The notes under the pieces: generated by a model | Databases searched by the model: none | What the model saw: the letters and a program-made list of their open reading frames with translations, nothing else | What the model was told of the DNA's origin: nothing | Part shown: positions 34,843 to 63,034 of the stretch, piece after piece | Layout of the letters: each line of letters begins with the position of its first letter | How positions within the stretch are numbered: position 1 is the stretch's first letter | Made by a program: the position numbers and the translations under genes | Origin: Candidatus Cloacimonadales bacterium | GTDB lineage: Bacteria; Cloacimonadota; Cloacimonadia; Cloacimonadales; JAIOQZ01 | Length of the DNA: 64,000 nt | Direction of reading: 5' to 3' | Assembly: GCA_963662655.2 (NCBI GenBank) | Contig: CAXXTU010000002.1 | Span: forward strand, 448,001-512,000

Positions 34843-35718
34843 TTAGAAGTTCCTGATCAGTATCTCTGAACTCGCTCTGTTCGTTCCAGACACCGAGTAT
34901 CTCGTGTTCACCACATCGATGGTGAAGTTCTTGTACAGCTCGCGGATAACGGGGTGGTCATTGTAGCTGAGCAGCCATTTGCCCTGCACCTCGCGTAGCA
35001 GCTTGGCCAGCTCCTCGTGCTGGTCAAAGGCAGCCACCTTGTCGCGCTCGTAGAGCATCTCACGCTCGTAGTAGGGCGGGTCGATGTAGAAGAACGTCGC
35101 TGGTCGGTCGTACTTGCGGATGACGGCCTCGTAGTCGAGTCGCTCGATGATCACGTCTCGTAGCCTCTCACTGGCAGCTTCCAGCTTGCCCACGCGACGG
35201 ATCGGCAGCATGGTCAGGTGACCGCGCACGGCGAACGTGCTGCTGAGACTGCCGTAGGAACACGCCAGCACGTAGTAGAAGCGCACCGCGCGTTCGAGGT
35301 CGGTGCGCGACTCGCTATCGAGGAACTCGTGGAACAGCTCCCGCGAGGCGAGAAGCCGGTCGAGTTCCGCTTTCAGCGCGGCCGGATGGTGCTTCACATG
35401 CCGCCAGAAATTCACCAACTCGCCGTTGATGTCGTTGAGGATTTCGCGGTACTTCTGGCCCTTCGTCGCCTGCCATTCCTTGTGGTCGCGCGACTTAGCG
35501 AACAGGATCCATGCTGCACCAGCAAAGGGTTCGCAGTTATGGCGAACGCCGATAGGCGTGAGTCCTGACCAGCTATCCAGCAGGTTCAAGCTGCGAGTTT
35601 TCCCGACGTAGTGGATTCGTGCTTCGCACTCACCATGTGTGTCGTGCTTCGGGATGAGCGGAACAATCGCCTTGCGCAAGAGTCGCTTGCCGCCCACCCA
35701 GCCGATGACGCTATTCAT
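34843..35718 (-). CDS. Dam-family (D12) DNA adenine methyltransferase 2 with an in-frame insertion before motif I
   Basis: WVGGK, EPFAG and YIDPPY motifs; about 33 extra residues between PKHDT and CEPF. Confidence 0.85.
   Translation of the reverse strand: MNSVIGWVGGKRLLRKAIVPLIPKHDTHGECEARIHYVGKTRSLNLLDSWSGLTPIGVRHNCEPFAGAAWILFAKSRDHKEWQATKGQKYREILNDINGELVNFWRHVKHHPAALKAELDRLLASRELFHEFLDSESRTDLERAVRFYYVLACSYGSLSSTFAVRGHLTMLPIRRVGKLEAASERLRDVIIERLDYEAVIRKYDRPATFFYIDPPYYEREMLYERDKVAAFDQHEELAKLLREVQGKWLLSYNDHPVIRELYKNFTIDVVNTRYSVSGTNRASSEILIRNF
35541..35634. repeat. Structured micro-insertion A (two GA-hairpin arms)
   Basis: GGCGA-ACGCC-GATA-GGCGT-GAGTCC, 47-nt spacer, GGATTC-GTGC-TTC-GCAC-TCACC. 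Confidence 0.8.
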
Positions 35719-36472
35719 CTGACACCTCGTAGTTTGCGATGATAACCTCCTTGAACATGCTCTCGCCCTTCATCCGGTTGATCCCCTTCACGCGAGAGAC
35801 CGGGATGATGGTGTGACCAGCGTACAGCTCGCGCACCTCAGGGCAGTCGTCGTAGGAGAGTAGCCAGCGGCCTTTCACGCCCTTCAATACGTCGCGGAGC
35901 TTCTCGTGGTCGAAGTGTCTGGCGTTGGCGTATGTCGTGCCATGCACGTATGGCGGGTCGCAGTAGAAGAACACGCCGGGCCGGTCGTAGAAGGCGATCA
36001 GCTCCTCGTAGGGCAGGTGTTCGATGGTCACCTTGTCGAGCCGCGTGCTGAGGTCGTGGACGCGAGCTAACTTGCGCTGCATACTGCTCGGACCTGATGT
36101 CGAGGCGCGTCCGAAGTGTTCGCCCTTGCCGCCGAACGAGCGGGTGATGATGTAGAGGAATCGCGCGGCGCGTTGCAGCTCCGTGAGTCCGGGCTGCTCG
36201 ACCAGCTCGTCGAACAGGGCGCGTGAGGCTGGCATCAGCTCGAGCTCCTTCACGAGCGCGTCGGGGTGGAACTTCACCTGCAGGAAGAGGTTCGTCAGCC
36301 GCGCATCGAGGTCGTTGTACACCTCGAGACGAGCCCAGCGGTCACGGTGAAAGAGCACCCAACCCGCGCCGCCGAACGGCTCTACGTAACCGGTGATGTC
36401 GTCCGGCACCAATGCGGCGATTTTCTTTCGCAGCAGCTTCTTGCCGCCGATCCATGTAATCAGACTATCCAT
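35711..36472 (-). CDS. Dam-family (D12) DNA adenine methyltransferase 1
   Basis: WIGGK, YVEPFGGAG, VYND and YCDPPY motifs. Confidence 0.9.
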   Translation of the reverse strand: MDSLITWIGGKKLLRKKIAALVPDDITGYVEPFGGAGWVLFHRDRWARLEVYNDLDARLTNLFLQVKFHPDALVKELELMPASRALFDELVEQPGLTELQRAARFLYIITRSFGGKGEHFGRASTSGPSSMQRKLARVHDLSTRLDKVTIEHLPYEELIAFYDRPGVFFYCDPPYVHGTTYANARHFDHEKLRDVLKGVKGRWLLSYDDCPEVRELYAGHTIIPVSRVKGINRMKGESMFKEVIIANYEVSDE

Positions 36473-36976
36473 TTGATTTCCTTGTGGTTTCGATGGCGAG
36501 GCAGTAGCGGAGGTAGAGTTCGGGCAAGCTCAGCTCGATGAAGTCAGCCTGCGTGAACCCCACCCCGCGCAGGGCCATCTCGAGCCGTTCGGTGGCGAAA
36601 CACGAAGTGTTGAGTCCATGCTCTAAGGACTCGTGCTTGCGCACTCGCCTGTAGCTGTCCCCGCTTCGACCCGCGCCGTGTAGCCCAAAGCGTCGAGCAA
36701 GGGCGTCAACGCGTGCCAACTGCCTCTGACAGCCGAGAAAAAAGCCGTAAACGCCTCCGCCGCCAGCTCGGGGCCGATGTCCTCGGGCTCGCGTCCGGTG
36801 AGGATACGCAGGATGTCGATGTCGACGTGGGATTCTTCGAGCAAGTCCAGGAAGTCGACTTCGCTTAGCTCGACCTCGTTACCGGCGAGCAGGTCGGTCA
36901 GCCCATCGCGGAGTTGATCGTTGCGAAGCAGCGTCGAGAGTACCTTGCGGAAGGTCGCGTATGAGATGTCCATCAC
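36465..36976 (-). CDS. Tail assembly chaperone with predicted -1 frameshift extension (G/GT type)
   Basis: ORF 36623-36976 has in-frame T TTT TTC at 36743-36737; the -1 frame is open to 36465; lies between the tail gene and the TMP. Confidence 0.7.
36594..36649. repeat. Structured micro-insertion B (same family as A)
   Basis: GGCGA-AACAC-GAA-GTGTT-GAGTCC, 9-nt spacer, GGACTC-GTGC-TTGC-GCAC-TCGCC. Confidence 0.8.
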
Positions 36977-37173
36977 GCCCCCAGAAAGGTCTTCACGGCG
37001 ACGCCAATCAGCAGAAAGAACTGGCTGACGGTCAGGCTCGTGAGCAGCTTGATATTCGTCTCCAGACGCGCAATTCGGGTGACCATCGACCGGCTTGAAT
37101 CGCCGTTGCCGTACACCTCCTTGTGCACGTCCGAAATCTTCTTACGAATTTCAGGATCGCATCTGCATTCCAT
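36973..37173 (-). CDS. Small phage protein with a C-terminal TM helix
   Basis: 66 aa; VYGNG..RIARLE then a hydrophobic tail; RBS GGAG. Confidence 0.7.
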   Translation of the reverse strand: MECRCDPEIRKKISDVHKEVYGNGDSSRSMVTRIARLETNIKLLTSLTVSQFFLLIGVAVKTFLGA

Positions 37174-37181
37174 GATTTCTC

Positions 37182-37727: not shown

Positions 37728-37736
37728 CGCGGCTCC

Positions 37737-37937: not shown

Positions 37938-37957
37938 ACGTAACTCCTTTCAGTCGT

Positions 37958-38049
37958 TAATTATGAATTAGGAATTATGAATGATGACAACTGGCGGTTT
38001 GGTCGCGTCTGTGCCTTCATTTCTAATTGCTCATTCCTCATTCATCATT
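37958..38049. repeat. Inverted heptamer-repeat element 2
   Basis: TAATTAT GAATTAG GAATTAT GAATGAT - spacer - TTTCTAA TTGCTCA TTCCTCA TTCATCA. Confidence 0.8.
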
Positions 38050-38057
38050 GATTTTGG

Positions 38058-39829
38058 TTAGTCGGTGAGTTGGTAGAATTTCACGAAGCCGGGAACGTAG
38101 GTGATGCCGGGCCGGATGCGGATGTACCAGTGATACTTCCAGTCCGAGCCGTGGTGCTCGACCTTGAGTTCGGCGTCCGTGCGGTAGCCGATGATGATGA
38201 ACTTCGTCAGGCCGCAGACGATGTAGTTGTCAGGCAGGAGCCGCGCCTTGACCGGGATGCCGCTGAAGCTGACCTTGCCGCCCTCCAGGAGCAGCTTGTC
38301 GCCCTTGTTGGTCTCGCGTTGGCCAAGCTCCGTGCGAATGCGAATGAGGTCTTTGTGGCTCACATAGATGCGGAAGCTCTCCTGCTCCTCCAGCATCTCG
38401 TCGGTGAATGCAAGCAGCACTTGCTCGAACCGTTCGGTCCACTCGTCGTAGGTGGTGGGACTGATGGCGGTGATGTCCGTGCCATCGGTCGCGAGCTTCA
38501 CGAGACCGTTGAGAGCCTTCAGCTTGGCGGTCGCCGACGCGCGGTCGCCTCGGAACAACAGCAGACGCATCGCCTTCTCGGTCTTGCGCGCGATGTGCTG
38601 CTCGACGTAGGCCCCGAACGCATCCTCGCCGTACTTGTCCTTGTAGAACTCCACGACGTCGCGCCCCAACGTGAACTCGGCCATCAGGATGCCGGTCGGG
38701 CAGGACAGATCGGCGGTGGCGACGTCTTGCGCACTCAGAGTGCCGTCCAGCGAGTTGTGGAAGATCAGGTCTTCGATCAGGCCGACGTCGATCTTCTCGT
38801 CCTTGAGCAGCGGGATGACCGAGATGTCGGTGAGCGTGTCGCCGGGCTTGGAGCCGATCACTTCGTCGATGAACAGACTCGTGTTGTTGGGCGTGAGGAT
38901 GCTCATCGCCTTGCCGGAATCGACGTCCGCGATGCCCTTGTAGATCTCGCGGTGCGCGGCCTTCACGAGCACCTTCTCGCCGTTGACGATCACTTCGCGG
39001 TCACCGCCGTCGGCGTCGGGTTCGCCCTGAATGCTCTTCGAAATCGCGCGACTCATCGTGGCCGAGAGGCTGTCGAGACTCTTCTCGATGGACTTCACAG
39101 CCTCTCGCAGACCGCCGTCGCCGATGCCGTTCTCCAGCCTCGAAACCTTGCTCTCCAGCTCGTCGATGGCGGACTCGAGCTCCGCTTCGCGGTCGGCGTC
39201 CTTGAGCGACTTCTTCAGGTCGCGCAGCCCCGCAATCTCGTCGCGGATGGCCTTCAAGGTCTCGCCGGTGTCGTTGTAGTCGTCAGCGCGACCGTAGATC
39301 GACACGCCATTGAAGTCGCCCTTCTCGACTTTTTTCCACAGCGCGGAATCGAGGTCGTCGCACTTCAAGACCTGCACCCAAGCTCCAACTTTCGTGTCGG
39401 GGAAATGGGTCCTGTCCTCGGTCTTGAGGATGTAGTTTTCGGCCACCGAGAAGTCGTCGATCGGGTGGTTGTTGTGGTTGATGTCGTTGCGCCCGACCAT
39501 GTAGTGGCGGCTTGCGAAGCAAACGCCAGCCCTCAAGCGTGTCTGCTGAAGTGGTCGCACGCCTTCTGGATCTCCTCGGCCGTGTAGAAATCGCCCTGCG
39601 CGTCCTTCACGTCCGGCTCCATCAGGGTCACGAACAGCCGCCCTTGACGGCCTTTCGTCTCGCTTTTGAACTTCACGGACGAGCCGCGCACCTTGTACGC
39701 TTTTCCGCTCGCGGCCTTCACCACGAAGCCCTTCTGATTGGCGGGATTCATGTCGTCGAACAGGAGCGACACGAGCTCCACCTCGACGTTGCGCAACTCA
39801 CCCTTGCGCACGGTTTTACGTTCTGTCAT
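38058..39829 (-). pseudogene. XkdF-like prohead protease/major capsid fusion interrupted by a 35-nt hairpin insertion
   Basis: N-part 39533-39829 (ELVSL..PAN, EPD..DAQGD...EEIQKAC..F) and C-part (DINH, GAWV, GDFNGVSIYG, then a capsid-like region) are in different frames, separated by insert C. Confidence 0.8.
39504..39538. repeat. Structured micro-insertion C
   Basis: Hairpin TGGCG-G-CTTGC-GAA-GCAAA-CGCCA (39505-39528); CAC codon repeated on both sides. Confidence 0.75.
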
Positions 39830-42743: not shown

Positions 42744-43225
42744 AGCGGGTTGCCCACGTATGACACAGGAATAATATTATTCAGAATTATTTATTTTTTG
42801 AATTAGTTATACTAATGGAGAACAGATCACAAATATACGAAGGAGTACGATGTGTGCGGCAAATAATGATATTCCGTTACCTTTTTCCATCAGAGAAACA
42901 AAGTAAAAACATGCTAATATGCTGCGGATTCTCGATTTAACCTTTTGTTGATTAAATGTGTATAAAAAAATATTTGACAAGATGGGATTCCAAGCCTATT
43001 GATTAGTTAATCAATGCTAACATCAGAATTCTCTTGGATATGTGTGTGTGGGGGGGGTGTAATTATAAGATATGCATTAATAATACAAATTATGCTTTTC
43101 TTGGAGGGATTATGTAGTACGATGGAAGAATTGGCAGTGCAAATGAATGAGATGTGATTGATCTTGCAGGAACTGTTGACACCTAACAATTAACTGAACG
43201 TTAGTACAAAATCTCAGGAGGAATT

Positions 43226-46006
43226 ATGAAACGAGTAATTTTATGCGTCTCTCTGGTGTTGACGATGGTCAATATTTGTTTTGCAACAACCTATATCGTG
43301 GCAAACAACGGAACTGGAGACTTCCTGAACATTGCCTCTGCGGTTGCTGCGGCAAGCGATGGTGATCAGATCGTTATTTATGGCACTGGGCAAGATTATA
43401 CTGGGACACAGAATCGAAACATTGTTCTGGATGGATCTCAAAAACATCTCAGGATTATTGGCATGAATAATCCCGTCATAGACCTTGAAAACACAAGCAG
43501 AGCTTTTATAGCCCAGAACACGAATGCAAGCGATTGCATTACCGATATCAGGTTTGAAAACGGGCTTGTAACATCCAACTATGTTCAAGGTGGGGCAATC
43601 ATGCTTAGCAGTGGTGAGCTTTACGTTGAGGATTGCGAATTCTGGTACATGATGATAGCCGGCGAGTATTTCAAAGGTGGTTCAATTTCAGTAGGCGAAG
43701 ATGCCTCGGCTACGATCGTGAACTGTAACTTCTACAGCGGTGGCTATACAGGTACGCTTACATTACCTGGGAATAGGACGATAGCCGGAGGAGTAATCTA
43801 CTCTCAGGACGCTGAAGAGATCATTATTAGTAACTGTCAATTTATCGGAAACTCCGCAAAATTTGCTTCGTGTATTGGAGTATCCGGGGATACGGATATC
43901 GAGATCACAAATTGCAGATTCTCAAGCAATATGTGCTTTATGAGCGGCACAATATGTGTATGGGGAACGAGCCAAATAAGTGATGCATTGATACAAGATT
44001 GTGAATTCTCGAACAATATAGCTCAGAGCGGTGATCCTGGGATATATGCACAGCAAACATGCGTAAGTATAAGTGGTATGAATAGTTGTTTGATTCAGAA
44101 CAATGAATTTGATGGCAACAGGGCAGAAGACGGATCTGCTTGTATCTATTTCTTTCATATCACAGATATGGTCATTGACAACAATGAGTTCACCGACAAT
44201 CGAATCATCGAAGGCGGAGGAGCTACCGCCGCTAATAGCATCTCTGCATCATCATGTTCCGCCCATATCCTCAATAACAAGTTTATCGAGAATTATGGAA
44301 TGTCCCCCTGCATATCACTAGCCAATGTCACATATAATGATCCAGCATATGTCGAATTGAATATATGGAACAACACCTTCGATAATACTGTGTCAATAGG
44401 TAGTTACTACCATCCGCTCATATTCAATCATATACTTGACAGTAGTGGGATTAATGTAGATATCGATGTGAGAAACTGCATCATGATCAACAATGACGCA
44501 CTGGTTTTGTTTTACTCGCCTGACTTTGATTATGGGGATATTTACTGTGACTATGCCTGGATGAACAATAATACTTGCCATCCAATTCCGCCATTGTTTG
44601 ATGAATTTGTTACGTATGGCCAGAACATGTTCAGTGGAAATCCTTACCTTGATACGAGCCACACTCCTATGTGGAACTCAAGTGTTCGCTCACCGGTTAT
44701 CGATGCGGGATATCCATCAATCGCGGACGATGACGGAACCCCGAGCGATATCGGTGCCGTTCGAGCTCAGGATCATGATTTCGAGAGATACTCCTATCGG
44801 GCTCCAGGATTTGGATCTGCCAGCGATTATGAATGGGTATGCTACCCGGTTGTCGATAACGTCTATACGGCCGAAAACAATGCCTCGGACTTCTTTGAAG
44901 ATATTGATGAAGATTTAACGGCTCTAGGGCACAATAATGTATGGGGCACTGACTATGGTACCTATTGGGAGTATCCCTGGGAAGATGATCCGGACGATAC
45001 CGATCCTACTGATGGATTCAAATTACAGGTAAGTTCCGGTACCGTTATGAATAAGGTTGGGTTTCTTGCCGATCCCGATACCGAAATTACACTAACGGCC
45101 TCTAGCTATTCATATTGGATCGGTTATTTCATCGAGGAAAGCCAGTATCCTCTTGATGCCCTTGCAGACGTTCTCGACGATCTGACAGAGATCAAACATC
45201 ATGACTGGACACTTGTAAAGACAGGCTTGGGCTGGCTTGGGGGAAGTTCTTATACGATCAACTATGGCGATATGGTTGAATTGACCTGTGAATCCAATTG
45301 TTCATTCGCATGGAACGATAACCTCAGCCGAACGGCTCCTGCTTATAAAGAGCAAACAAGCCATTACAGCGTTGAAGAAGATGCGGGTTATACACCGGTG
45401 TACTTGGATGTAAGCGGATATTCGGATAACATGCCCGAAGAGATTGGCATGTATGCCGATGGTGAATTGATCGGCGCTACCGTGGTTGATGGTGAGATAA
45501 CGCAGATCAACGCATATGTGGAAGACATTGAAAACCTCGAAGAAGCCGAAGTAAGCTTCGAGCTTTTCTATGGTGATCGTGCACCGCTTGTCGGATGTGA
45601 CATGTATAAGGTAAATTCAGATATAACCGAGGACTATATCAAGACCACACATATGTTCGAGACTCAGTCGCGTTACTATCAGGTTACGCTTGGGAAGGGT
45701 GGTGTCGAGACTCTTGTTCCCGATCTTCCGGAAACTGTCAGTATCAATAACTATCCCAACCCGTTTAACCCGGAAACGACCGTATCCTTTACCTTGCCTC
45801 AGGATGGCAAAGTGAGTATCAAAGTGTTCAACGTTCGCGGTCAGTTGGTGAAGACATTGGTTGACAACAATCTGAATGCCGGCAAGCATGAAATCGTGTG
45901 GAATGGCCGTGATGAAGAAAATCGTCAGGTTGGTTCAGGCATCTACTTCTGTCGTCTTCAGACAGCAGGAAAGATACTGAACCGTAAGCTGTTGATGATG
46001 AAATAA
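43226..46006 (+). CDS. Secreted right-handed beta-helix protein with C-terminal FlgD-Ig/T9SS-like sorting domain
   Basis: Signal peptide; I.NC.F..N repeats; SPVIDAG..DIGA; NYPNPFNPET...WNGRD..SGIYF; RBS AGGAGG. Confidence 0.88.
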   Translation: MKRVILCVSLVLTMVNICFATTYIVANNGTGDFLNIASAVAAASDGDQIVIYGTGQDYTGTQNRNIVLDGSQKHLRIIGMNNPVIDLENTSRAFIAQNTNASDCITDIRFENGLVTSNYVQGGAIMLSSGELYVEDCEFWYMMIAGEYFKGGSISVGEDASATIVNCNFYSGGYTGTLTLPGNRTIAGGVIYSQDAEEIIISNCQFIGNSAKFASCIGVSGDTDIEITNCRFSSNMCFMSGTICVWGTSQISDALIQDCEFSNNIAQSGDPGIYAQQTCVSISGMNSCLIQNNEFDGNRAEDGSACIYFFHITDMVIDNNEFTDNRIIEGGGATAANSISASSCSAHILNNKFIENYGMSPCISLANVTYNDPAYVELNIWNNTFDNTVSIGSYYHPLIFNHILDSSGINVDIDVRNCIMINNDALVLFYSPDFDYGDIYCDYAWMNNNTCHPIPPLFDEFVTYGQNMFSGNPYLDTSHTPMWNSSVRSPVIDAGYPSIADDDGTPSDIGAVRAQDHDFERYSYRAPGFGSASDYEWVCYPVVDNVYTAENNASDFFEDIDEDLTALGHNNVWGTDYGTYWEYPWEDDPDDTDPTDGFKLQVSSGTVMNKVGFLADPDTEITLTASSYSYWIGYFIEESQYPLDALADVLDDLTEIKHHDWTLVKTGLGWLGGSSYTINYGDMVELTCESNCSFAWNDNLSRTAPAYKEQTSHYSVEEDAGYTPVYLDVSGYSDNMPEEIGMYADGELIGATVVDGEITQINAYVEDIENLEEAEVSFELFYGDRAPLVGCDMYKVNSDITEDYIKTTHMFETQSRYYQVTLGKGGVETLVPDLPETVSINNYPNPFNPETTVSFTLPQDGKVSIKVFNVRGQLVKTLVDNNLNAGKHEIVWNGRDEENRQVGSGIYFCRLQTAGKILNRKLLMMK

Positions 46007-46142
46007 TTTCGGCTTCAGCGAAGCTGAAACGAAAACATGAGTGATGTAATCCCGAATATTCGGGACTACACTAGCGGATAATCATAATCCAGCCCCGCCT
46101 CCAACTCCCTCTCCCGCTTGCGGGAGAGGGTTGGGGTGAGGG
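46006..46142. repeat. Cluster of REP-like palindromes
   Basis: TTTCGGCTTCAGC-GAA-GCTGAAACGAAA; TGTAATCCCGAATATTCGGGACTACA; CCCTCTCCCGCTTGCGGGAGAGGG. Confidence 0.7.
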
Positions 46143-46159
46143 TGTATTAAGGAGACCTC

Positions 46160-48529: not shown

Positions 48530-48556
48530 TCCTGTTTGGATCACTCGGGATGTAGC

Positions 48557-49048
48557 ATGGATTATGTTTCAAAAGAAATCAGAAGCCGCATGATGAGCTC
48601 GGTCCGTTCCAAGAGCACAACGAATGAAGTACTGATTCGAAAGTCTCTGTTTCATCTCGGACTAAGATACGGGCTTCACAACAAAAACCTTCCCGGTCGT
48701 CCTGATATCGTGCTTCGCAGACATAGAACTGCAGTGTTTGTAAACGGATGTTTCTGGCACATGCATGGTTGTCACTTAAGCTCTATCCCCAAAACGAGAG
48801 TGGATTGGTGGCGAGACAAGCTTATGAGCAACAAAGCAAGGGATATCTTGAATTACAAAAAGCTATTGAGTATGCATTGGCGTGTCGCTATTATTTGGGA
48901 TTGTGCTTTAAAAGGCAAGAACGGATTGACAGCAGAATTCATTGCTTTAAAATTGCAATCATTCTTAATTGATGATGTCTCTGTCATTTGTTGTGGTGGC
49001 AGGGGAATTACTTACCCAACAAACATTGAAGGTGTGTACTATGGCTGA
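48557..49048 (+). CDS. vsr: Very-short-patch repair endonuclease
   Basis: RSRMMS.V, LPGRPDIV, FVNGCFWHMH and N..RD motifs. Confidence 0.9.
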   Translation: MDYVSKEIRSRMMSSVRSKSTTNEVLIRKSLFHLGLRYGLHNKNLPGRPDIVLRRHRTAVFVNGCFWHMHGCHLSSIPKTRVDWWRDKLMSNKARDILNYKKLLSMHWRVAIIWDCALKGKNGLTAEFIALKLQSFLIDDVSVICCGGRGITYPTNIEGVYYG

Positions 49049-51203: not shown

Positions 51204-52264
51204 GAGTACTTGTTATTGATGACGATAAAAATAGCATAGAGCCTTTGCTGGATGACCTGAATGAACAAGAGCACGAAGCTTGTTTCAATAACTTTGTCGA
51301 TGAATCGGAAATACTGAAGCTGGTATCAGACACGTTGCCAGACCTACTTGTTCTCGACTTGAAAAATGCCGCTCAGCAATCGGGTGACAATGATATAGCA
51401 GGTTCAAAGATTTTCGAACAAATATGGCAAGAACGATTCTTTCCGGTTCTGATTTACTCTGCATATCCTGATTTAGTCTTAAATAGACTTCCGAAAAACC
51501 CGTTTATAGGAAGAGTAACGAAGGGTGCGAACTCTGAAAAGGAAGTAATAAATTGGATTAACGGGAAACAGAATGTTGTTGAATTGCTTCATGAGATTGA
51601 TAATGAAGTGGCAAAATCAAAACACGATACCCTCAAGTCCATAACCCATTATCTTGGTGAAGGTTTACCGGAAGCGAAAATTGTTAGCTATCTTATTAAA
51701 AGACGTGTCGCAGCACTAATGGATATTGCCGACGGTGACATTTCGGTTCCGGCGTGTTTCAGATACATTTATCCACCAATATGTAAGTATTCAAGGATGG
51801 GAGATGTAATTGCAAAGAGGGATAGCAAAGAATTCTGGATAATTCTAACTCCATCCTGTGATATGGGCGATGATGGGCAAGAACCGAAAGTAAAAAAAGT
51901 TATAGCTGCTCGGTGCTATGAAATTAGTCCAGATCGAGTTGACGAGTTCAAGTTTGGAAAGAAGAAGAACAAAATACGACAAGTTCTAACTCAAGGACAT
52001 CAAAAAGAATTCATACCGATACCTTCATTGCCTGAAAAGTTTCCTCATTTAGTTGTGAATTTTAAGGAAATCGAATTAATACCAATCGAAGAAATAGGGG
52101 ATTCTGATAATGTGAAGTATAGGAGAATCGTCTCAATTGATAGCCCCTATCGCGAGCAAATCTCTTGGGCATTCATTCAGGTAGCCGGTCGTCCGGGAGT
52201 ACCGAGTGTTGATATTGATAAATGGGCAGAGGAACTTGAAGTACTATTCGGTGGGAACTCATGA
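51200..52264 (+). CDS. Response-regulator receiver protein with an uncharacterised C-terminal domain
   Basis: VLVIDDD, LVLD and IYSA; C-terminal GD....ILTPSCD...R.G.P. Confidence 0.8.
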   Translation: MRVLVIDDDKNSIEPLLDDLNEQEHEACFNNFVDESEILKLVSDTLPDLLVLDLKNAAQQSGDNDIAGSKIFEQIWQERFFPVLIYSAYPDLVLNRLPKNPFIGRVTKGANSEKEVINWINGKQNVVELLHEIDNEVAKSKHDTLKSITHYLGEGLPEAKIVSYLIKRRVAALMDIADGDISVPACFRYIYPPICKYSRMGDVIAKRDSKEFWIILTPSCDMGDDGQEPKVKKVIAARCYEISPDRVDEFKFGKKKNKIRQVLTQGHQKEFIPIPSLPEKFPHLVVNFKEIELIPIEEIGDSDNVKYRRIVSIDSPYREQISWAFIQVAGRPGVPSVDIDKWAEELEVLFGGNS

Positions 52265-53316
52265 TCGGTCTTGATTTTTTTTGCGGAGCCGGTGGACTTA
52301 CCAGAGGATTAATAGATGCCGGAATACAGGTTCTTGGCGGTATTGATTTGGATAATCGGTGCAAAAATACATATGAGAACAACAACAATGCCGTATTTTG
52401 GGATGCCGATATTCGTGAAATCAATGGACATATGATCAAAGAGCGTTTCCCGAAGCTCTTTAAACAAACTGACGATGTCCTTTTTGCTGGATGTGCACCT
52501 TGTCAGCCGTTTAGTCAACAGAGAAATTCAAAAACAGAAAGACCGGACAAAAACATCTTACTTGAATTCGGTCGTCTTATTGAAGAGTGTAAACCTGGGT
52601 GGGTTCTTATTGAGAATGTACCGGGTATTGCATTAAGTCGAGATCCTAAAACAACGCCATATAGTTGTTTTCTTAAAATCCTTAATCGTTGTGGATATCG
52701 ATATGCTCCGGATTTCATTAACGCTAAAGATTACGGTGTTCCACAAAATCGCAGACGCTTCGTTCTGCTTGCGACAAGAATACCCGATATAGAAATAACT
52801 CTTCCAAAAAAGACACATGGCTCTGGTCTTGCGGAATACAAAACTGTCCGACAAACTATTTCGCAATATCCTCCAATATCGCAAGGAATGACGGATTCAT
52901 CCATTCCGAATCATACAAGCGCTAAATTGTCTCCTATCAATTTGCATCGCTTACAAGTGACTCCACATGATGGCGGCGATAGGCGTTCATGGCCAGAGCA
53001 TCTTGTGCTCAAGTGCCATAAAAATCATTCTGGACATACTGATGTATATGGGCGTATGTATTGGGGACAACCTGCTCCGACTCTGACAAGTAAGTGCACT
53101 AGTATCTCTAACGGTAGGTACGGACATCCGGAACAAGATAGAGCAATTTCACAAAGAGAAGCAGCAGCGTTACAGACATTTCCCGATGATTACGTCTTTT
53201 TCGGTTCGACTCCATCGATTGCCATGCAAATAGGGAATGCAGTACCTGTATTGCTCGGAATGCGTCTTGGCGAGCATATATTAGATTTACTCAACAGGAC
53301 AAATCGGGGTAATTAG
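52261..53316 (+). CDS. dcm: DNA cytosine-C5 methyltransferase
   Basis: DFFCGAGG, PCQPFS, ENV, PQNRRR, REAAALQTFPD and IGNAVP motifs. Confidence 0.93.
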   Translation: MIGLDFFCGAGGLTRGLIDAGIQVLGGIDLDNRCKNTYENNNNAVFWDADIREINGHMIKERFPKLFKQTDDVLFAGCAPCQPFSQQRNSKTERPDKNILLEFGRLIEECKPGWVLIENVPGIALSRDPKTTPYSCFLKILNRCGYRYAPDFINAKDYGVPQNRRRFVLLATRIPDIEITLPKKTHGSGLAEYKTVRQTISQYPPISQGMTDSSIPNHTSAKLSPINLHRLQVTPHDGGDRRSWPEHLVLKCHKNHSGHTDVYGRMYWGQPAPTLTSKCTSISNGRYGHPEQDRAISQREAAALQTFPDDYVFFGSTPSIAMQIGNAVPVLLGMRLGEHILDLLNRTNRGN

Positions 53317-54074
53317 TGCTTAAATACGCATTCAGAACTAATGATGTCTATTCTCGAAAAGATGTGTATCGTGTAATCGGTATTTCCGAGGACACTCATG
53401 GTGGAGTATGGGACACCGGCTATGCAATACACAATGAAGACTATTTCATCTTCACAAACGTTGGAGTGCCTGGAAGGACCGGTCATAATTACAAAAACAG
53501 ATTTGAAGGTGACCGTCTCATCTGGTTCGCCAAAACAGTACCAAAAATAGGGCAACCGCAGATCAAGGAACTATTATCTCCACCAGGATATGTGTATGTG
53601 TTTTTCCGTACTGAGAACAAAGCTCCCTTTACCTATGCAGGCACTGCAATACCAATAGCTTTCGAGGATGTTTCGCCTGTCCAAATAACCTGGCAAATAA
53701 TTAATGAATATACTCATACAACCATAATGACTGAAGAAGACACCGAATTACATGAGGGGAAAGCTCTTTATCGTACGGGATTAATCTTCGAACGAAATCC
53801 TTTAGCACGTAAAAGATGCATTGATCATTACGGATGTCGTTGCTATGTATGTGGTTTTAACTTTGAATATGTGTACGGAGAAAAAGGGAGAGGATTCATC
53901 CATGTACACCATTTGGTTCCTCTTTCCAACATAGGTTCCGACTACATTATCAATCCTATTGAAGATTTGAGACCCATTTGCCCTAATTGTCATGCAATGA
54001 TTCATAGGCAGTCACCAGCTCTTTCGATTGATGAACTGAAGCATGAGATGAGAAATCAGTACGATTCCGAGTAG
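53316..54074 (+). CDS. HNH endonuclease (McrA-like C-terminus) with SRA/DUF3427-like N-terminal domain
   Basis: EG....ERN..AR..C, CYVCGFNF...YG..G.GFIHVHH, DL.PICPNCHAMIH. Confidence 0.85.
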   Translation: MLKYAFRTNDVYSRKDVYRVIGISEDTHGGVWDTGYAIHNEDYFIFTNVGVPGRTGHNYKNRFEGDRLIWFAKTVPKIGQPQIKELLSPPGYVYVFFRTENKAPFTYAGTAIPIAFEDVSPVQITWQIINEYTHTTIMTEEDTELHEGKALYRTGLIFERNPLARKRCIDHYGCRCYVCGFNFEYVYGEKGRGFIHVHHLVPLSNIGSDYIINPIEDLRPICPNCHAMIHRQSPALSIDELKHEMRNQYDSE

Positions 54075-54118
54075 TTCTCAATCCCCTGAAAATACTGCAG
54101 ATATCCCCGCTAATATAC

Positions 54119-54146: not shown

Positions 54147-54180
54147 AGAGACATACTTAGGAGCACAAAGGAGACTTATG

Positions 54181-54226
54181 CGTTCCCAAGGGGAACGGCC
54201 CTTGCGGATCGCGAAGCGACCGCCCG
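54181..54226. repeat. Structured micro-insertion D between two ATGs
   Basis: Hairpins CGTTCCC-AAG-GGGAACG and GCGG-A-TCGC-GAA-GCGA-CCGC; ATG at 54178 and at 54227. Confidence 0.7.
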
Positions 54227-54588: not shown

Positions 54589-55467
54589 CTAAATCACCAC
54601 CTCCGTCCCTGTCCTGCACTTCCAGTGGAACGGCGGGAAAGGCGTGTGGCTTCCTGAGACGCCGGTGGGCTTGCCGGATGCGTTTCGCTCTATCATGTCG
54701 TCGCTGACCCACGGCGCAAGCTCCTTCGTGCGTTCTCGCGCGGATTCGAGGCTGTGCTGCTTCGGATCGATGGCGAGCAGGTCTTCCATCACATCGAGCG
54801 CGTCGGAGAGCGGATAGACCTTGTTCTGCGCGGCAAGGGCGCGGCAGATATCCGACGTACGATCATCGAGGACGACCACCAGCCGGTAGTACCTTGCGCC
54901 GGCCTTGCGATACCCCTCCAGCCTTCCAAACTCCCGAATCCTCAGCGCGGTATGCTCCGCAAGCCCCTGCCAGTAGTGCTGCGACTTCGCGCCCAAGTCC
55001 TTGAACTGCTCCGCGAGCTTCTCTTGCAACATCTTTTTCGTGTAGCCTGACGCGACAGCCTCGGTCAGTGTGGAGCGAAACTTCTGCGAAATGTCCGTGC
55101 CGTAGCGTTCGCCGATCCAGAAAAGGTTCTGGCGGGTGATGACGGTCTCGAGACGCTTTTCACGCGCACCGTACAAGCCGATGCGAGTGTTGTGCGGAAC
55201 CTGCTTTTGCGCGTCGTTTAAGCCCGGCAGCATGCACCGCTGGATGTACGCCTTCGTCTCGGCTCGCACAGCGGACGAAAAATCCTCGCCGAGGTTGGAG
55301 TCAATGACGGCGAGAACGTCGTCGATATGGGTGCGATTGAGCCGCTCGTGACGTGGAATGTCCGACAACGCCCTGATGGCCTGCATCGCCGACTCGCGCA
55401 CCTCGCGCTGCCAGGCGTTGTTGAGGACGCGGTAGTACTCGAGCATGATGCGGTCGAAGTAGGTCAA
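54589..55467 (-). CDS. Phage head morphogenesis protein (Mu gpF/SPP1 gp7 family)
   Basis: LDDRTSDIC and PPFHWKCR motifs; TTG start overlapping the terminase stop. Confidence 0.85.
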   Translation of the reverse strand: MTYFDRIMLEYYRVLNNAWQREVRESAMQAIRALSDIPRHERLNRTHIDDVLAVIDSNLGEDFSSAVRAETKAYIQRCMLPGLNDAQKQVPHNTRIGLYGAREKRLETVITRQNLFWIGERYGTDISQKFRSTLTEAVASGYTKKMLQEKLAEQFKDLGAKSQHYWQGLAEHTALRIREFGRLEGYRKAGARYYRLVVVLDDRTSDICRALAAQNKVYPLSDALDVMEDLLAIDPKQHSLESARERTKELAPWVSDDMIERNASGKPTGVSGSHTPFPPFHWKCRTGTEVVI

Positions 55468-57067
55468 AACCGGAAGCTCCGAACTCTGGTTCTGTTGCGG
55501 CCGGTGTCGTATTCGGGGAAGCGTTCGAGGCAGCCTGCGAGGGCGTCCGGGCCATCGACGTAGCCCTGCGGATAGGTGAGGAACTGGCTGACGAGGGTCG
55601 GCGTGTCCTGCCCGTCGGGAAAGACGACCTTGCCGGTCTCGATGACGGTGTCCACGCGCTCGATGCGCAGAGCCTTGTTGCGGTCGTTGTTGACGCGCCG
55701 GATACGGTGCGAGATGGGATTGCGCCCGTTCTCGCGGCACCAGCGGTCGAAGTCGGCGAGGATGCGGTGCTGCCCGTAATTGGTCTCCATCGCGGCGCGG
55801 AAGCGGACCCCGAAGCGGTGCGACAGCTCGTCGCAGGCGTCGTAGTAGAACTGGAAGAAACGCGAGTTTTCGGTCTGGCGCACCCAGCAGTGGATCATGT
55901 AGAACTTCAAGCCGTCGTAGCCCAGGGAGATTATGGCTTTGTAGCAGCCTGTTTGAACGAAGTGAAAACCGCCAGCGCCAGGTTTTTGCGAAGCAAAATA
56001 CCGAGAGCGACTACCTTTAATGCTGGGTCGGCGTACATCCAGACGCGCTTCATGCGCTTGGGCAGGTGTGAATACCGCTTGAACCAGTGGTGCTTGAACA
56101 TGTTGCCCTCGATCACCGGCACGCCGAGAAACTCGCGCTGATAGCCCGTGTGACCGAACTTGCGGCGCAGCAAAGGCAGCTCGCTGGTCGGGTACTGCTT
56201 TTCCCAGACCGACTTGCCGTCATCGGTTTCCAGAGAGAAGCGCAGCAGCCGCCTTCCCTCTGCGAACAGATGCTGGATGTCGTCCGGATTGAAGGAGTCG
56301 TTGTCGGACTTGATCTCCTCGACGATCGACTCCATGAACTGGCATATCGCGTAGTTGGGGTGGACGAGGTTGCCGAGCCAGATCACCTTGCCCGTACCAG
56401 ATGGATCGAGCGCGCCGCCGATCTCCTGCACGATCTTGTCCATGCGCCGCCTGCCGATGGTCTGGTTCCCGACGTTCTCTTCCTTGTCGATGTCGTCACA
56501 GACGATCAGGCCGGGGCGCGTGGAGGTGCGGGGATTGATCGAGCCGCGAAAGGATTGCTTCACACCTCGTGCGCGAATACGGCAGCGGTTGCGGAGGTAG
56601 AAATCATCCTCGGTCGTGTCGATGGGACGCAGGTCGTCGAAGTCGCCGAGAAGCCGCTTGTTGTTGGTCAGCTCGTTGAAGGTGAACGCCGTCCTCTCCT
56701 CCGCCAGATCGACGTCGGCGGCCGTGTGGATCACGTACCTCTCGCCCTTGATCACCCGCCAGATCGGATAGACGACGCCCATGAGCACGGTCTTGCCCAA
56801 GCCGCGAAATCCCGTGATGGCGGTAACGCCGCTCTCGGCTTCCACCACCTCGAACATCTCGCGGTGACAGTCACAGAAGGGGTGCTCGAAGATATGCGGG
56901 AAGTAGCTGCAGCAGAAGAAGGAAAAGGACGACCAACCCTCGCCTGTGGCGCGTTCGATGCGCGCCTTGCGAGCTTGCGGGGAGTCGTCGGGGAAGGGTT
57001 TGACCGACGGTGTCTTCGCCGCGACGGAAGTGAAGAAGCGCAGGTCTTTCTGGGTCGGTTTAGGCAT
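55464..57067 (-). pseudogene. Terminase large subunit interrupted by a ~70-nt hairpin insertion
   Basis: ATPase FRGLGKT and LIVCDD, nuclease YADPA and D.PDAL; the frame changes across 55951-56020 and the downstream frame resumes as GCYKAIISLGYDG. Confidence 0.85.
55951..56020. repeat. Structured micro-insertion E
   Basis: GTTT-GA-AC-GAA-GT-GA-AAAC and GGTTTTTGC-GAA-GCAAAA-T-ACC. Confidence 0.78.
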
Positions 57068-58569: not shown

Positions 58570-58761
58570 TCCAAGCAGTTTTTCCTTCACTCTGTACAAT
58601 GAAGCCTTATTGCGCTCTTCTTCGACGAACTGCGGCATGAGATTGCGCACAGTCTTAGGATGAAGTCCCGTGTCGTTCGCTACATCAGCCACCCTAAATG
58701 GTCTCCTATGGTATTCGATAAATCGGTCGATGATACGCTTCGCAGGAATGTTAGGACGCAT
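58549..58761 (-). pseudogene. Early HTH gene, probably truncated by the inserted nuclease gene
   Basis: PFRVADVANDTGLHPKTV HTH; runs into AT-rich insert sequence after about 58615. Confidence 0.5.
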
Positions 58762-59485
58762 TCTTCAACTCCTGCGTTTCGAGCAGATCGCTGAGCGCGA
58801 CTTCAGACAGGTTCATGGCGGCGGCGACCTTCTCGACCGCTTCGATAATCTTGATCATCTGTCGGAAGTTGCCATGCGTGGTCTTGTGGATGTAGCTCAG
58901 GAGATCGGAGCACATTTTGACGTCCGAGACGGCGTTGCAAACAAGCTGGACGTCTGCGCGGGACAGCCGCTGAAACTCGTAGAAGTAGTTACACCTGTCG
59001 AAATAGTGCGCGTTTGCCTTGAGCAGCTTCTCACAGGCGTCCTTCATACCGACCAACACCACGATGGCCAGCGTCTCGTCGACGATGTCTCGGATCGAAC
59101 CGAGCAGCATCGGCTGGTTGAAGGCGTAATCGATCTCATCGATGACGATAACGGCGTCCGGATGTGCCTGCAGCTCGTTGATACAGCGGCGAAACAGCGT
59201 ACTCGTTGAACCGTGGTAGCCTTCACCGGAGACATCGTACCGGTAGTGAAGAAGGCTAAGCAGCTCGCGCGCGAACACCTTCGCCGTCATCGAGGCTTCG
59301 AGTCGCAGGTAAATGTAGTCGTTGGTGTAGGCGAGCCGCTTGGCGAAGCGGGTCTTACCCAGTCCCGGCGCGCCGTAGAGAAGTCCCAAGCCGACCATCT
59401 CGGTCTTGGGTCGGTTCTGCAGGTAGGCGATGCATTTCTTCGCGCCTTTCACGTTCGCGGTTTCCGCTAATACCCTTTCTTTCAT
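58751..59485 (-). CDS. MuB-like AAA+ transposition ATPase
   Basis: Walker A GAPGLGKT, Walker B IVIDEID, VLVG and GNFR; follows the transposase. Confidence 0.9.
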   Translation of the reverse strand: MKERVLAETANVKGAKKCIAYLQNRPKTEMVGLGLLYGAPGLGKTRFAKRLAYTNDYIYLRLEASMTAKVFARELLSLLHYRYDVSGEGYHGSTSTLFRRCINELQAHPDAVIVIDEIDYAFNQPMLLGSIRDIVDETLAIVVLVGMKDACEKLLKANAHYFDRCNYFYEFQRLSRADVQLVCNAVSDVKMCSDLLSYIHKTTHGNFRQMIKIIEAVEKVAAAMNLSEVALSDLLETQELKNAS

Positions 59486-59501: not shown

Positions 59502-61508
59502 CTATCCTATTCCAATTGCTTTCATCAGTTCAGCGAAGCTGGGTTCGTCATCCTCGCCAGACTTTCGCTCTTCTTGAATGGTCTCGGTCTCCGCCGACGC
59601 CTTGACGATGTCGTCGATGGTCAGCGTCGGCTCCGGCTGCTCGATCAGCGGTTGATCTGCGAAAATCTCGCCGATCTGGTCGGTCATCGGCTGCTGTATC
59701 TGGCCGACGGCTTCGTTGACCTTCAGAAGTATCTTCTCGGACGATTCCTGCACGTTTTTCTCGAGCTTGCGGATGCTTTGCAACTCCTTCTGGAGAGCCT
59801 TCTGCGCTTGCGGCTTGTCCTTGGCGAGATGGATGAACGGATGCTGGTGACGTCGCGCCTCAGCTTGGCAAATGAAGCGGTTTTTCGCGTCGTAGATGAG
59901 CACCGAGCGCATGTCCATCAGGTCGTAGCGTATCGTGACCTTGTCGCCGATGTGCTGAATAAGCTCGTCGTGCCAGAAATGGATGTTGCTGAAGCGAACT
60001 CCGGACGCCTGCACCACGCGGTCTGTGGCGGAGAGCATCAGGAAGTTGAGTTGAGTCAGGTCGATTTGTTGCTCCGCTGGTATCCCCGCTTCGTGGAATA
60101 CTTCGAAGGGCTTGCGTCCGCCGATTCCGGTATGGGGCGTCAAGCCGTACATCTTCTCTATGTAAAGTCCGATCATCGCCTTCGCTTGCGGGATGGTCAG
60201 CGGCTTGCCTTCGAAGATGTTGAGCACCCACTTCTCGTTGCGCTTGAGCGTGGCAGGTTTGTCGTCGATGGAACCGCCCCGGAAGGTGCTCATGTACCGC
60301 TCGAAGTCGTCTTGAAACGTCCTGAAGAACCTTTCCACCACCTTGGCACGCGCGTTGTATGCCTTGGCGAACGTCACGCCAATACCGAGTCGCGGGAAGA
60401 TACCCACCAGCTCCTTGCTCAGGTCGTGCTTCTCCCACTGCTTGTTGAATAGTTTTGAGCGAAACGCCTTACCGTTATCGAGATAGACGTATTTCGGCCT
60501 GCCTCCCCAATGCATAATCGAGTTGCGAAGTGCGAGAAGAACATGCTGCGAGTCCTCCGAAACCGCCAGCGACGCTCCCACCGGGTAACGGGAAGCCCAG
60601 TCGAAGAACATGATCATCGTCATGCGCCTGGGCTTTCCGGTAGCCGGATCGATGATGTCGAAAGCGAGCTTGTGACCGTCCGCCACCCACACATCGCCGA
60701 CCTCGAGTTCGTCGCTCCTCAGAACACTCAAAATGCCGGTCTCCTTGAGGCTTTTCTTGCCGTTGCGGAGCAGGTTCCATTCAGGTTTGTGGCTGTCGCG
60801 CCACTCCTCGCACCAGCGGCGAAGCGTTCGTTCGCTCGATGGCGACTCCAGCTTTTGCAAGGTCTTCATCTGCTTCAGCTTGCGAATAGCCGACCCGATG
60901 GATATGCGATTCGGGTTGAGTAACAGGTGAAGCAAGAAGTTCTGCTCGGTCTCTGTCGCTTTGCGCGTGGCTTCCGCCACCGTGTACTTGCGGATGAGCG
61001 ACCGGGCGTCTCGTCCCGCTTTGACGTAGTTCCGCACCCAACGGCGCAATGTCCGTTCGCCGCGATGTCCCTCGACGACGTACAGCTCCGGCATGAAGCG
61101 TCTGTCGTTGTAAGCATCGACGATTGTCTTCCACGCATCCGTCTTGGAGACAGCCCGACTCAGGACTTCAAGAATGGCGTCGCAGAGCTGCGCACGCAGA
61201 TGCGCCTGCTCCTGATAATGCATCGGTTCGTTGTGCTTGGGTCGCAGGTCTGGTATCGTCTCATCCCGCAAGGCAGGAACTTCAGCGGAGACCGACTCCG
61301 GCTCCTCATGCTCCTCCGGTTCTTGAACTTGTTCCAACTTTGTCTGCGGTTCAATCACTCCATCCGGCACGTCATACAATTTGTGACGTCCACCCTTCGG
61401 TAGGGATTCATACTTCGATTGCCAGCCTTCCTTCTCCGCTCTGCGTATCAGCGCAGAACGTGTCACGTGCAGAGAATCACACAGCTCTTTAGTGCTCTTC
61501 CAACTCAT
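59502..61508 (-). CDS. MuA-like DDE transposase
   Basis: N-terminal Mu-type HTH; WVADGH, YLDNGKAF, AKVVERFF and C-terminal IRYDLMD; RBS GGAGG. Confidence 0.92.
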   Translation of the reverse strand: MSWKSTKELCDSLHVTRSALIRRAEKEGWQSKYESLPKGGRHKLYDVPDGVIEPQTKLEQVQEPEEHEEPESVSAEVPALRDETIPDLRPKHNEPMHYQEQAHLRAQLCDAILEVLSRAVSKTDAWKTIVDAYNDRRFMPELYVVEGHRGERTLRRWVRNYVKAGRDARSLIRKYTVAEATRKATETEQNFLLHLLLNPNRISIGSAIRKLKQMKTLQKLESPSSERTLRRWCEEWRDSHKPEWNLLRNGKKSLKETGILSVLRSDELEVGDVWVADGHKLAFDIIDPATGKPRRMTMIMFFDWASRYPVGASLAVSEDSQHVLLALRNSIMHWGGRPKYVYLDNGKAFRSKLFNKQWEKHDLSKELVGIFPRLGIGVTFAKAYNARAKVVERFFRTFQDDFERYMSTFRGGSIDDKPATLKRNEKWVLNIFEGKPLTIPQAKAMIGLYIEKMYGLTPHTGIGGRKPFEVFHEAGIPAEQQIDLTQLNFLMLSATDRVVQASGVRFSNIHFWHDELIQHIGDKVTIRYDLMDMRSVLIYDAKNRFICQAEARRHQHPFIHLAKDKPQAQKALQKELQSIRKLEKNVQESSEKILLKVNEAVGQIQQPMTDQIGEIFADQPLIEQPEPTLTIDDIVKASAETETIQEERKSGEDDEPSFAELMKAIGIG

Positions 61509-61698
61509 CGAGTCCTCCCTGTAATGCGTCGATATCCTCGCCAAGAAGCTCCCTGACTACCTCCAACACCTTGTTGGTTTGCCGATTTCCCTGTATCGTC
61601 TTGTACACCGCGCTGGTGCTTACACCCGCCTTTTCCGCGATCTGCGAAGCCGGAATTCCTCTAAGCGCCATCGCTGCACGAATTACGTTAGAATTCAT
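61489..61698 (-). CDS. Ner/Cro-like HTH regulator
   Basis: IRAAMALRGI..SQIAEKAGVSTSAVY..I.G; RBS AAGGAGG. Confidence 0.85.
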   Translation of the reverse strand: MNSNVIRAAMALRGIPASQIAEKAGVSTSAVYKTIQGNRQTNKVLEVVRELLGEDIDALQGGLDELEEH

Positions 61699-61714
61699 GT
61701 CGCCTCCTTTTTGC

Positions 61715-61777
61715 TTGACAGCCCGTTCCGAGCGTCCATCTTGGGGACAGCATATAAGATGCACTTATGTGTGTCAA
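61715..61777. promoter_or_regulatory. Lysis/lysogeny switch: overlapping opposed promoters with a palindromic operator
   Basis: Plus strand TTGACA(61715)-N16-CATCTT; minus strand TTGACA(61777)-N17-TATGCT; ATAAG-N5-CTTAT at 61754-61768. Confidence 0.65.
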
Positions 61778-61806
61778 GCCCTATGTGTAAGGGGAACTAA
61801 AATATT

Positions 61807-62490
61807 ATGATGGGAATTGGAGCGCGACTGAAGGAAGCCCGTGTCGAATTGGGGCTTACGCAAACCGACATTGCCAAGACCGTGGGGATCAATCCTTCCG
61901 CTATCAACCAGATCGAGCGCGGCAGCACGAATCCGTCGCTATCGACGATCGAATCTATTAGTAGTGCTTATAAAATCAATGCAGATTGGTTACTTACGGG
62001 TCGCGGAGAGATGTTTGTCGGCAGTGGAAACATCATCAGTCCGACTCATCTGCTCGTCGACCATAATGGATTGACGCTGGAACCGCGAGGTGAACTCGCC
62101 GAAGTTGAAATCGCGGGTGTCATTGCCGCAGGTGCTCCGATCGAACAGACCGGCGACCATGAATTGATCGCTCCGCTACGTCTCGCGCTTCCGAACAAGA
62201 ATCAGTATGTGGCGTTGGTCGTTCACGGTGACAGCATGGAACCCGAGGTACGAGATGGCGACTTCGTTCTCATCCGACGCGACGCCGAGTGGTTTCATGC
62301 CGACAATAAAATCTGCGCCGTTTCCATCGATCACGAGTACACGCTCAAGCGACTCCAGATCGATGCCTCGAACAAGATGGTCATCCTGCATTCTCTCAAC
62401 AAGGAATATCGTCCCATCATTGTCGATCCGCTCGACACGGAGTTGCGACTGGCCGGCGTGATGGCATATCTGCTTCGCCGATTCCAGTAA
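61807..62490 (+). CDS. Phage repressor, XRE HTH plus S24 (LexA/CI-type) peptidase
   Basis: LTQTDIA...IERG, WLLTGRGEM, AAG cleavage site, GDSMEP Ser and TLKR Lys. Confidence 0.92.
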   Translation: MMGIGARLKEARVELGLTQTDIAKTVGINPSAINQIERGSTNPSLSTIESISSAYKINADWLLTGRGEMFVGSGNIISPTHLLVDHNGLTLEPRGELAEVEIAGVIAAGAPIEQTGDHELIAPLRLALPNKNQYVALVVHGDSMEPEVRDGDFVLIRRDAEWFHADNKICAVSIDHEYTLKRLQIDASNKMVILHSLNKEYRPIIVDPLDTELRLAGVMAYLLRRFQ

Positions 62491-62573
62491 TCGTCAATCG
62501 GTTTCTCTCTTTCATCCTTCCTCTGATTTATCATCACAATCTCGATTTGGGTTCCTTTGGGTTCGAGAAGGGC

Positions 62574-62900
62574 GTCTGCAAAAACGGTCGTCCGAGCGGA
62601 CGTTCGCGAACGTTCGCTTTCATGGGGTCGTTTGTCCGAAAAACCGGACGTTCGCTCGGTTTTCAAGTGCGGACAATCGATTTTTCAATGAGATAGACGT
62701 ATCTGCCGACAAATACAGGAACTTAAAAGGCTGCGAAAGTGGAATCTTTGTGCCAAACCGGTGGCACCGAAGGGGACGAAACGCACCGTTTCTGCCAAAA
62801 GCGGTCGCTCGCGGACAAACGCCTATCGCTTTCAAGTGACGAGAGATAACCCTAAAACGGGAGCGAACGTCCGTTCTGCCAAAGGGGTGTCATTTTATAC
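62574..62900. repeat. Mu-like end with repeated putative transposase-binding sites
   Basis: Related units TCTGCAAAAACGGTCG, TGTGCCAAACCGGTGGCA, TCTGCCAAAAGCGGTCG and TCTGCCAAAGGGGTGTCA; GGACGTTCGC in direct and inverted copies. Confidence 0.65.
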
Positions 62901-63034
62901 CCGTCTCAGCGGCGGGGCGGCGTGTGTGCATTCGCACACGGCTCGTTCCCCCAGCGCGCTTCTGCGCAGAAGCGCGCTGGGGGAACGAGCCCGGAAGCCA
63001 TAAGGCTTCCGACGCCGCCCCGCCGCGGGAATGG
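62901..63034. repeat. Cloverleaf (four-way junction) element F at the prophage end
   Basis: 15-bp outer stem 62909-62923/63012-63026, hairpin 62924-62939, perfect 52-bp palindrome 62940-62991, hairpin 62992-63011. Confidence 0.85.

Follow-up and report, generated by a model that had tools for sequence, protein, structure and literature searches.

Repetitive extragenic palindromic (REP) elements and the REPINs are the described systems closest to the elements reported here. In REPINs, two inverted copies with conserved ends enclose a spacer that varies (PMC3116915). Feet of the form GT[AG]G, 'double foot' REPs and REPs lying in frame within genes are among the arrangements described (PMC6006769), and for TnpA-REP bulge-dependent cleavage and strand transfer have been reported (PMC8266576). 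Orphan palindromic-repeat families with termini at stop codons and with intragenic copies are also on record (PMC3733652). The present report concerns five short hairpin inserts, A to E, in a Mu-like prophage of a Candidatus Cloacimonadales bacterium; the window analyzed is a stretch of 64,000 nucleotides (G000:C2:448001-512000, where G000 is the genome of the window). On balance, A to E are probably non-autonomous hairpin elements of single-stranded DNA (ssDNA) that resemble REPs and REPINs and fall into three or four types; an enzyme that nicks and joins DNA would move them in trans. A literature search, with supplements and most subscription journals outside its scope, returned no paper describing these inserts.

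As far as REPs and REPINs are characterized in the sources cited, A to E share with them the short bulged palindromes, the inverted doublets (A and B, whose common hairpin is designated AB) and the occasional in-frame insertion into genes. A GT[AG]G foot is present in part of them only, as GTAG in C and in reverse complement where E ends. They differ in that no cognate REP-associated tyrosine transposase (RAYT) was found in the genome or beside the hairpins, in that the subtypes are low in copy number and seen only in prophages, in that insertion replaces 1-19 bases, and in the tandem G.A pairs and bulged T, as against the AA/GC bulge of E. coli. The high copy number and mostly extragenic location of REPs were seen only in two host repeat families, G and F (intergenic status read from gene contexts, without a systematic count of overlaps with open reading frames (ORFs)), and not in the AB, C, D and E patterns, which are mostly intragenic. 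A to E work like REPs but are not filed as RAYT-REPs, because they differ in copy pattern and no cognate RAYT was found. The orphan GTAG/CGTC palindromic repeats and Rickettsia RPEs described in PMC3733652 are alike in having no dedicated transposase, in having termini at stop codons (as in G) and in including intragenic copies that add 20-30 codons. Unlike the repeats described there, the intragenic copies reported here cluster in Mu-like prophages, are disabling in about half of the cases, and occur as identical copies in divergent alleles of different host species. Unlike miniature inverted-repeat transposable elements (MITEs) of DDE transposases, A to E lack target-site duplications and replace target bases. 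Non-autonomous derivatives of IS200/IS605 and the attC sites of integrons are similar in having strand-specific hairpins with extrahelical bases. attC sites are marked by RYYYAAC/GTTRRRY boxes and occur in cassette arrays, neither of which was seen here by eye.

Insertions in the Mu-like prophage

The prophage occupies the right half of the window and includes MuA, MuB, a repressor, terminase, portal, protease-capsid and tape measure; its nearest named relatives lie in metagenome-assembled genomes of Cloacimonadales. Several sister prophages and remnants in G000 are the source of empty alleles. Prophage loci were compared in four genomes of the same genus; G003 belongs to another species than G000. 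Alignment with empty alleles in sister prophages of the same genome showed that A to E are independent insertions of 36-101 nt, each replacing 1-13 target bases (counted against the best empty allele) and none accompanied by a target-site duplication (Table 1). A preliminary description of this DNA had placed insertions at these positions, and these hold. It had listed six inserts for the prophage, including F, and had missed two inserts of a heptamer-arm type and one unit of repeat G.

Table 1. Positions and properties of inserts, repeats and prophage genes in the window
Feature	Position	Strand	Properties
Heptamer-arm hairpin insert, second	30288..30397		Net +110; gene junction
Insert A	35538..35638		101 nt for 2 target nt in Dam-like methylase 2; net +99; frame kept and open; AB hairpin as inverted doublet, one copy on each strand, variable spacer
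Insert B	36591..36653		63 nt for 3 nt; net +60; overlap of two tail-region ORFs; AB doublet
Heptamer-arm hairpin insert	37938..38055		Net +104/105; gene junction; separate family; ends approximate
Protease-capsid gene	38058..39829	-	Split by insert C; Peptidase_S78_2 matched by both halves
Insert C	39502..39537	+	36 nt for 1 nt; net +35; stop and frameshift; splits protease-capsid gene; single hairpin with 2x1 internal loop, GTAG at foot (first base from target)
Host family G unit	46001..46084	+	Inside prophage, directly after stop codon of FlgD/T9SS-type cargo gene
Insert D	54177..54224	+	48 nt for 1 nt; net +47; between ribosome-binding site and start codon of 99-aa moron gene
Terminase large subunit gene	55464..57067	-	Split by insert E
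Insert E	55950..56021	+	72 nt for 12-13 nt; net +59, frameshift; just after conserved YADP motif in terminase nuclease domain
MuA-like transposase of prophage	59502..61544	-	MuB at 58751-59485
Prophage Mu-like end	62885..62899		Common to sister prophages; host DNA from 62900
F	62905..63026		Host intergenic repeat; long terminal inverted repeats, unique palindromic middle

Of the 127 terminase loci fetched, 121 have an empty site at the position of E, two contain E and four gave no score; the W-G-E/Q-K-G motif lost at E is present in 122 of the 127. Three close copies of the terminase gene in G000 carry E and one close copy is uninterrupted. An assembly artefact is unlikely, since A, B and E recur in the assembly of the second species (G003), D is found at four places in G000, and one contig of an independent run spans E with 0 differences.

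The suggestion that the inserts disable prophage genes stands for C, D and E (frameshift or stop), but A and B keep an open frame; in B the downstream frame stays open and the upstream frame gains a stop. A hairpin-bridged ribosome-binding site that might rescue capsid translation after C was considered, then set aside. Rescue of E by -1 frameshifting or re-initiation was rejected, the conserved residues being absent regardless.

It had also been proposed that the inserts are removed or bypassed on induction. Intron-like elements of this kind, removed from DNA or RNA, would suit a location in essential genes and in phages of different species, and eight of 14 coding inserts (all prophages compared) are multiples of three in length. 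With target codons lost, however, no removal could restore the conserved terminase motif. In the contigs of four runs (A was not covered), the joints skipping B, C or E all have replaced letters and therefore represent paralog or relative alleles and not excisions; no clean skip joint was seen among them. GNA loops occur on either strand relative to the gene, and Rfam gave 0 matches at E≤5 over positions 27000-64000 of the window, which, with the conserved codons lost at E, sets the inserts apart from self-splicing introns and known structured RNAs. Removal or bypass is extremely improbable as an explanation.

In folding energy B, D and F were beyond chance when compared with 200 shuffles, and A, C and E not clearly so (8-42 of 200 as stable), the energy model taking no account of sheared G.A pairs. 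Of the four-way junctions described for A, B and F, those of B and F are minimum-energy folds, but the fold of A is not robust.

At least 21 distinct hairpin inserts, 16 of them beyond A to E, were counted in the prophages of the four same-genus genomes, leaving out shared 27-nt indels, deletions and badly placed rows; other comparisons brought further cases. They comprise the AB, C, D, E and heptamer-arm types, a type of roughly 120 nt, and singletons. Target loss ranges from 1 to 19 bases (AB 2-4, E mostly 12-19). TA stands at one end of 11 of the 21 inserts as judged by eye (chance about 1e-5 by hand estimate), and no target consensus was found among them. Fourteen lie in coding sequence: seven are in frame and open, one is in frame with a stop, and six shift the frame. 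The genes struck include those for terminase, capsid, MuA, MuF and endolysin. One prophage (G003:C4:1700001-1740000; L152, L153) contains at least seven separate hairpin inserts, two of them in one endolysin gene.

The heptamer-arm elements resemble A to E in that they, too, occur in this prophage as hairpin inserts that contain no gene and replace target bases; they differ in belonging to another sequence family, in preferring gene junctions and in having a gene-bearing copy, a four-helix-bundle (PF05635) gene between inverted heptamer arms in a sister prophage (G000:C2:2729907-2730218; L238). Among the inserts listed for the prophage loci, only this cassette and an insertion sequence (IS) are larger. 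Mu-like prophages of other genera gather other repeats of known type, mainly at gene junctions. Given the variety of types and the collection of other repeats in other genera, these prophages are sinks for several palindromic repeat families, not targets of one.

The lack of target duplication and of a target consensus, and the variable small deletions, would also agree with repair scars, prophage breaks from restriction, clustered regularly interspaced short palindromic repeat (CRISPR) immunity or abortive transposition being closed with nuclease-resistant hairpin oligonucleotides shed from host repeats. The HNH, Vsr and methylase genes of the prophage cargo and the high stability reported for GNA hairpins (PMC3201870) point in the same direction. 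The TA start and the family-specific deletion sizes suggest instead an enzyme-defined end, and the host chromosome holds no exact donor copy of A to E. No Ku gene was found, and none of the 15 spacers of the CRISPR array at G000:C2:2317648-2318590 (61-nt period) matches the fetched prophages beyond 16 nt. Repair scars, already raised in the preliminary description, keep standing as a rival, though a quite improbable one.

Structural types and host relatives

GNA or GNNA loops occur in A to E, as had been described, and the hairpin with tandem GA and bulged T was found again in A and B; the idea of one shared family was abandoned, as at least three grammars are present among A to E, with F apart. 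A and B each contain two inward-facing copies of the AB hairpin on opposite strands. In each copy a 3-bp stem bearing a bulged T is followed by tandem G.A pairs, a second stem of 4-5 bp and a GNA or GNNA loop. In ten AB half-sites 98.6% of cells are paired and six of seven pairs change on both sides; this covariation score was reached by 0 of 500 shuffles, the structure having been drawn from the same related sequences as were scored. The doublet form, inverted and with ends conserved around a variable spacer, is found in A, B and at L153:4012; C, D and E are not doublets. The GT[AG]G foot is missing on the GNA-loop strand of AB half-sites.

When 151 genomes were searched with a covariance model of AB, 23 matches reached E≤0.0013. 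All of them lie in three genomes of the same genus, within prophages or a remnant of one, and most are training sequences or copies of these. Of ten matches to an AB motif descriptor, eight lie within 173 kb marked as prophage, out of 3.81 Mb, and these represent only two inserts (two ends and two copies of each). Such confinement to prophages, and the striking of terminase, capsid, MuA, MuF and endolysin genes, might be expected of a host defence system that writes hairpins specifically into Mu-like phage DNA and so disables it. With half of the 14 coding inserts in frame and open, the eight descriptor matches reduced to two inserts, insert-bearing phage alleles moved between species, and neither a template locus nor an enzyme found, this explanation is very improbable.

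The AB pattern had 0 matches in a viral collection and ten in a metagenome scan, mostly chance. Among the latter, L287 has a perfect fold but was rejected, its sequence being ordinary coding DNA for a phage metallopeptidase of which full-length homologs exist; L290 was rejected as tRNA-like. Two unrelated metagenome contigs of high G+C content share an intergenic element with a hairpin of AB grammar (L288:738-771 and L291:1998-2031); no nuclease gene is adjacent among the ORFs scanned. The 3' half of AB resembles a tRNA T-loop.

D is a third type, apart from AB and from E and G. It consists of two hairpins, has no GT[AG]G foot, and was found at two independent sites, both in homologs of one moron gene; the second D-type insert lies inside the homolog at G000:C2:3193400. 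The D pattern had 0 matches in the viral collection.

Judged by sequence, E is a divergent member of host family G. Its core aligns with the 3' module of G, and a covariance model built from 20 host G units, chosen with a pattern that was written knowing E so that the link is partly circular, returned E as the second-best match in the window (E-value 3.4e-5). The top match (1.4e-7) was the unit of G that lies within the cargo of the prophage; no other sequence of the window is as close to E. In five loci tested, the same model recovered all five places of E type, with E-values of 1e-8 to 9e-3. C ranked third in the window, weakly (0.98), the sibling of C gave 4.2, and A, B and D were not matched; C may be distantly related to the 5' module of G. 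The E pattern had ten matches in three of 232 genomes, all in prophage stretches, and 0 in the viral collection. The one viral match of the C pattern was rejected as a chance match without the hairpin.

Five genomes each have at least 20-30 copies of repeat G, scoring having been capped at 30; in its units 7 of 21 pairs covary and 97.6% are paired. In 27 of 39 array starts G begins at a stop codon, with the lysine codon and stop typical of FlgD-type gene ends. The termini of GTAG-REPs described in PMC3733652 supply or abut stop codons, as G does. A GT[AG]G foot, mentioned above for C and, in reverse complement, for E, is also present in G units of G006. G adjoins stop codons of genes of the FlgD/type IX secretion system (T9SS) type in five genomes (loci L308-L337 and L342-L363) and forms tandem arrays, such as one of seven units with a period of 73 at G002:C20:27460-27981. 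About 137 FlgD/T9SS-type gene ends are present in G000, and many repeat types gather in their downstream gaps. In G000, G modules have been captured by a larger MITE-like repeat, whose asymmetric ends are conserved and which has spread there (G000:C2:31039, 235072, 806620, 1963030 and others).

F had been described as an insertion at the prophage end. Sister prophages end at the same 15-mer, which closes the Mu end here at 62899, and F begins beyond it. With 37 copies in G000 versus 0, 1, 0 and 0 in four relatives, F is a species-specific host repeat, outside the prophage and not part of A to E. The family (36 other sites in G000) has a different perfect palindrome in almost every copy and is nearly absent from three same-genus genomes.

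Proposed mobilization and spread

The many independent insertions, the covarying stems, the host relative of E and the lack of a linked enzyme gene bear out the earlier proposal of non-autonomous, structure-defined mobile DNA. If A to E are REP/REPIN-like elements moved in trans, the enzyme would recognize the bulged, G.A-containing hairpin in ssDNA and cut just 5' of its foot, as the TA at the beginning of many inserts suggests. Replicative transposition would expose a nick in phage DNA, to which the cut end would be joined; repair would resolve the opposite end, with the loss of a few bases. Inserts may persist since sister prophages in lysogens relax selection and complement defects, a redundancy suggested by the uninterrupted close terminase beside the three E-bearing ones in G000. 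Recombination and phage transfer would spread inserts between alleles and host species. The phage-only types were probably picked up in unsampled hosts, since repeats of this sort bloom species by species, as F does. In the genomes searched, the AB, D and E-pattern motifs are confined to prophages.

Several observations weigh against movement in trans of REP-like elements. No Y1/RAYT gene was found in G000 or G006, both of which are rich in G. In 39 loci with RAYT, GIY-YIG, DUF559, four-helix-bundle or reverse-transcriptase genes, the AB and G models had 0 matches, and the expected RAYT/HUH, GIY-YIG or DUF559 genes flanked by the same hairpins did not appear. The AB, D and E patterns were not found outside prophages in 151-232 genomes, which bears on the step through unsampled hosts. 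IS200/IS605-type insertion is precise, and the target replacement in A to E appears unlike it. To these are added the weakness of the relation between C and G, the partly circular link of E to G, and the crossovers very near both junctions that identical E in divergent alleles requires. In relatives, the repeats that bracket RAYT, GIY-YIG and DUF559 genes are different ones, particular to those genes; GxxExxY genes were absent from four genomes, and no gene-bearing copy of AB, C, D or E was found.

E is identical in terminase alleles of G000 and G003 that are about 10% divergent (3-16 differences per 100 columns). Differences between these alleles come as near as about 3-5 nt to the left junction and, on the right, resume about 12 nt from the junction. 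For the host loci compared, identity is mostly 70-83%. Three alleles whose flanks have diverged carry an identical B, and both terminal hairpins of A are without stem change while the spacer has nine changes in one allele. These data, with the three close E-bearing terminase copies of G000, are consistent with homing within the phage gene pool, in which a hairpin already in its site would be recognized anew and, with very short co-conversion, copied into the empty alleles that co-resident Mu-like prophages offer. Ordinary mosaic recombination may be enough to account for identical E, the phages being highly mosaic, star-like and different by about 10% everywhere; ongoing selection on the hairpin, such as homing would entail, is also a fit. 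One heptamer insert has its end replaced by the bases of the empty allele, most alleles are still empty, and no nuclease gene is linked, and homing is regarded as unlikely. A bolder form of it, considered decidedly unlikely, would make the inserts the smallest homing elements yet: gene-less ssDNA hairpins of less than 100 nt, with tandem G.A and a bulged T, in the Mu-like phage gene pool, copied into empty alleles with less than about 12 nt of co-conversion by a trans enzyme outside the RAYT, GIY-YIG, DUF559 and four-helix-bundle groups; such copying would switch off packaging genes and domesticate the prophages of different host species. Homing, if true, would add a new and minimal way in which prophages become domesticated.

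For REP-like elements moved in trans, the inserts are of use in another respect. For REP-like repeats, natural pairs of filled and empty sites are rare; more than 20 pairs are provided here, and any mechanism proposed for REP-like insertion must reproduce the replacement of 1-19 bases, the frequent TA start and the family-specific deletion sizes. G is an orphan family that reaches 20-30 copies where no RAYT was found, so that another mobilizer may exist.

Other features of the window and related loci

An IS3-like element at 27673-29005 replaces or interrupts the tail-side end of the prophage and has at least seven near-identical copies in G000; no second Mu end was seen at 27500-27800 of the window. 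A family search with prophage ORFs of unassigned kind gave no family. The prophage cargo (42770-54117) encodes two surface proteins with FlgD domains and a cluster of Vsr, HATPase, C5-methylase and HNH genes, and position 54117 is a boundary common to the sister prophages. A reverse-transcriptase gene at G000:C2:981409-981954 (L294) is split by an in-frame TGA and is unlinked to hairpins. At L224 and L228, GIY-YIG genes are flanked by duplicated tRNA 3' ends in which the T-arm is replaced by a hairpin.

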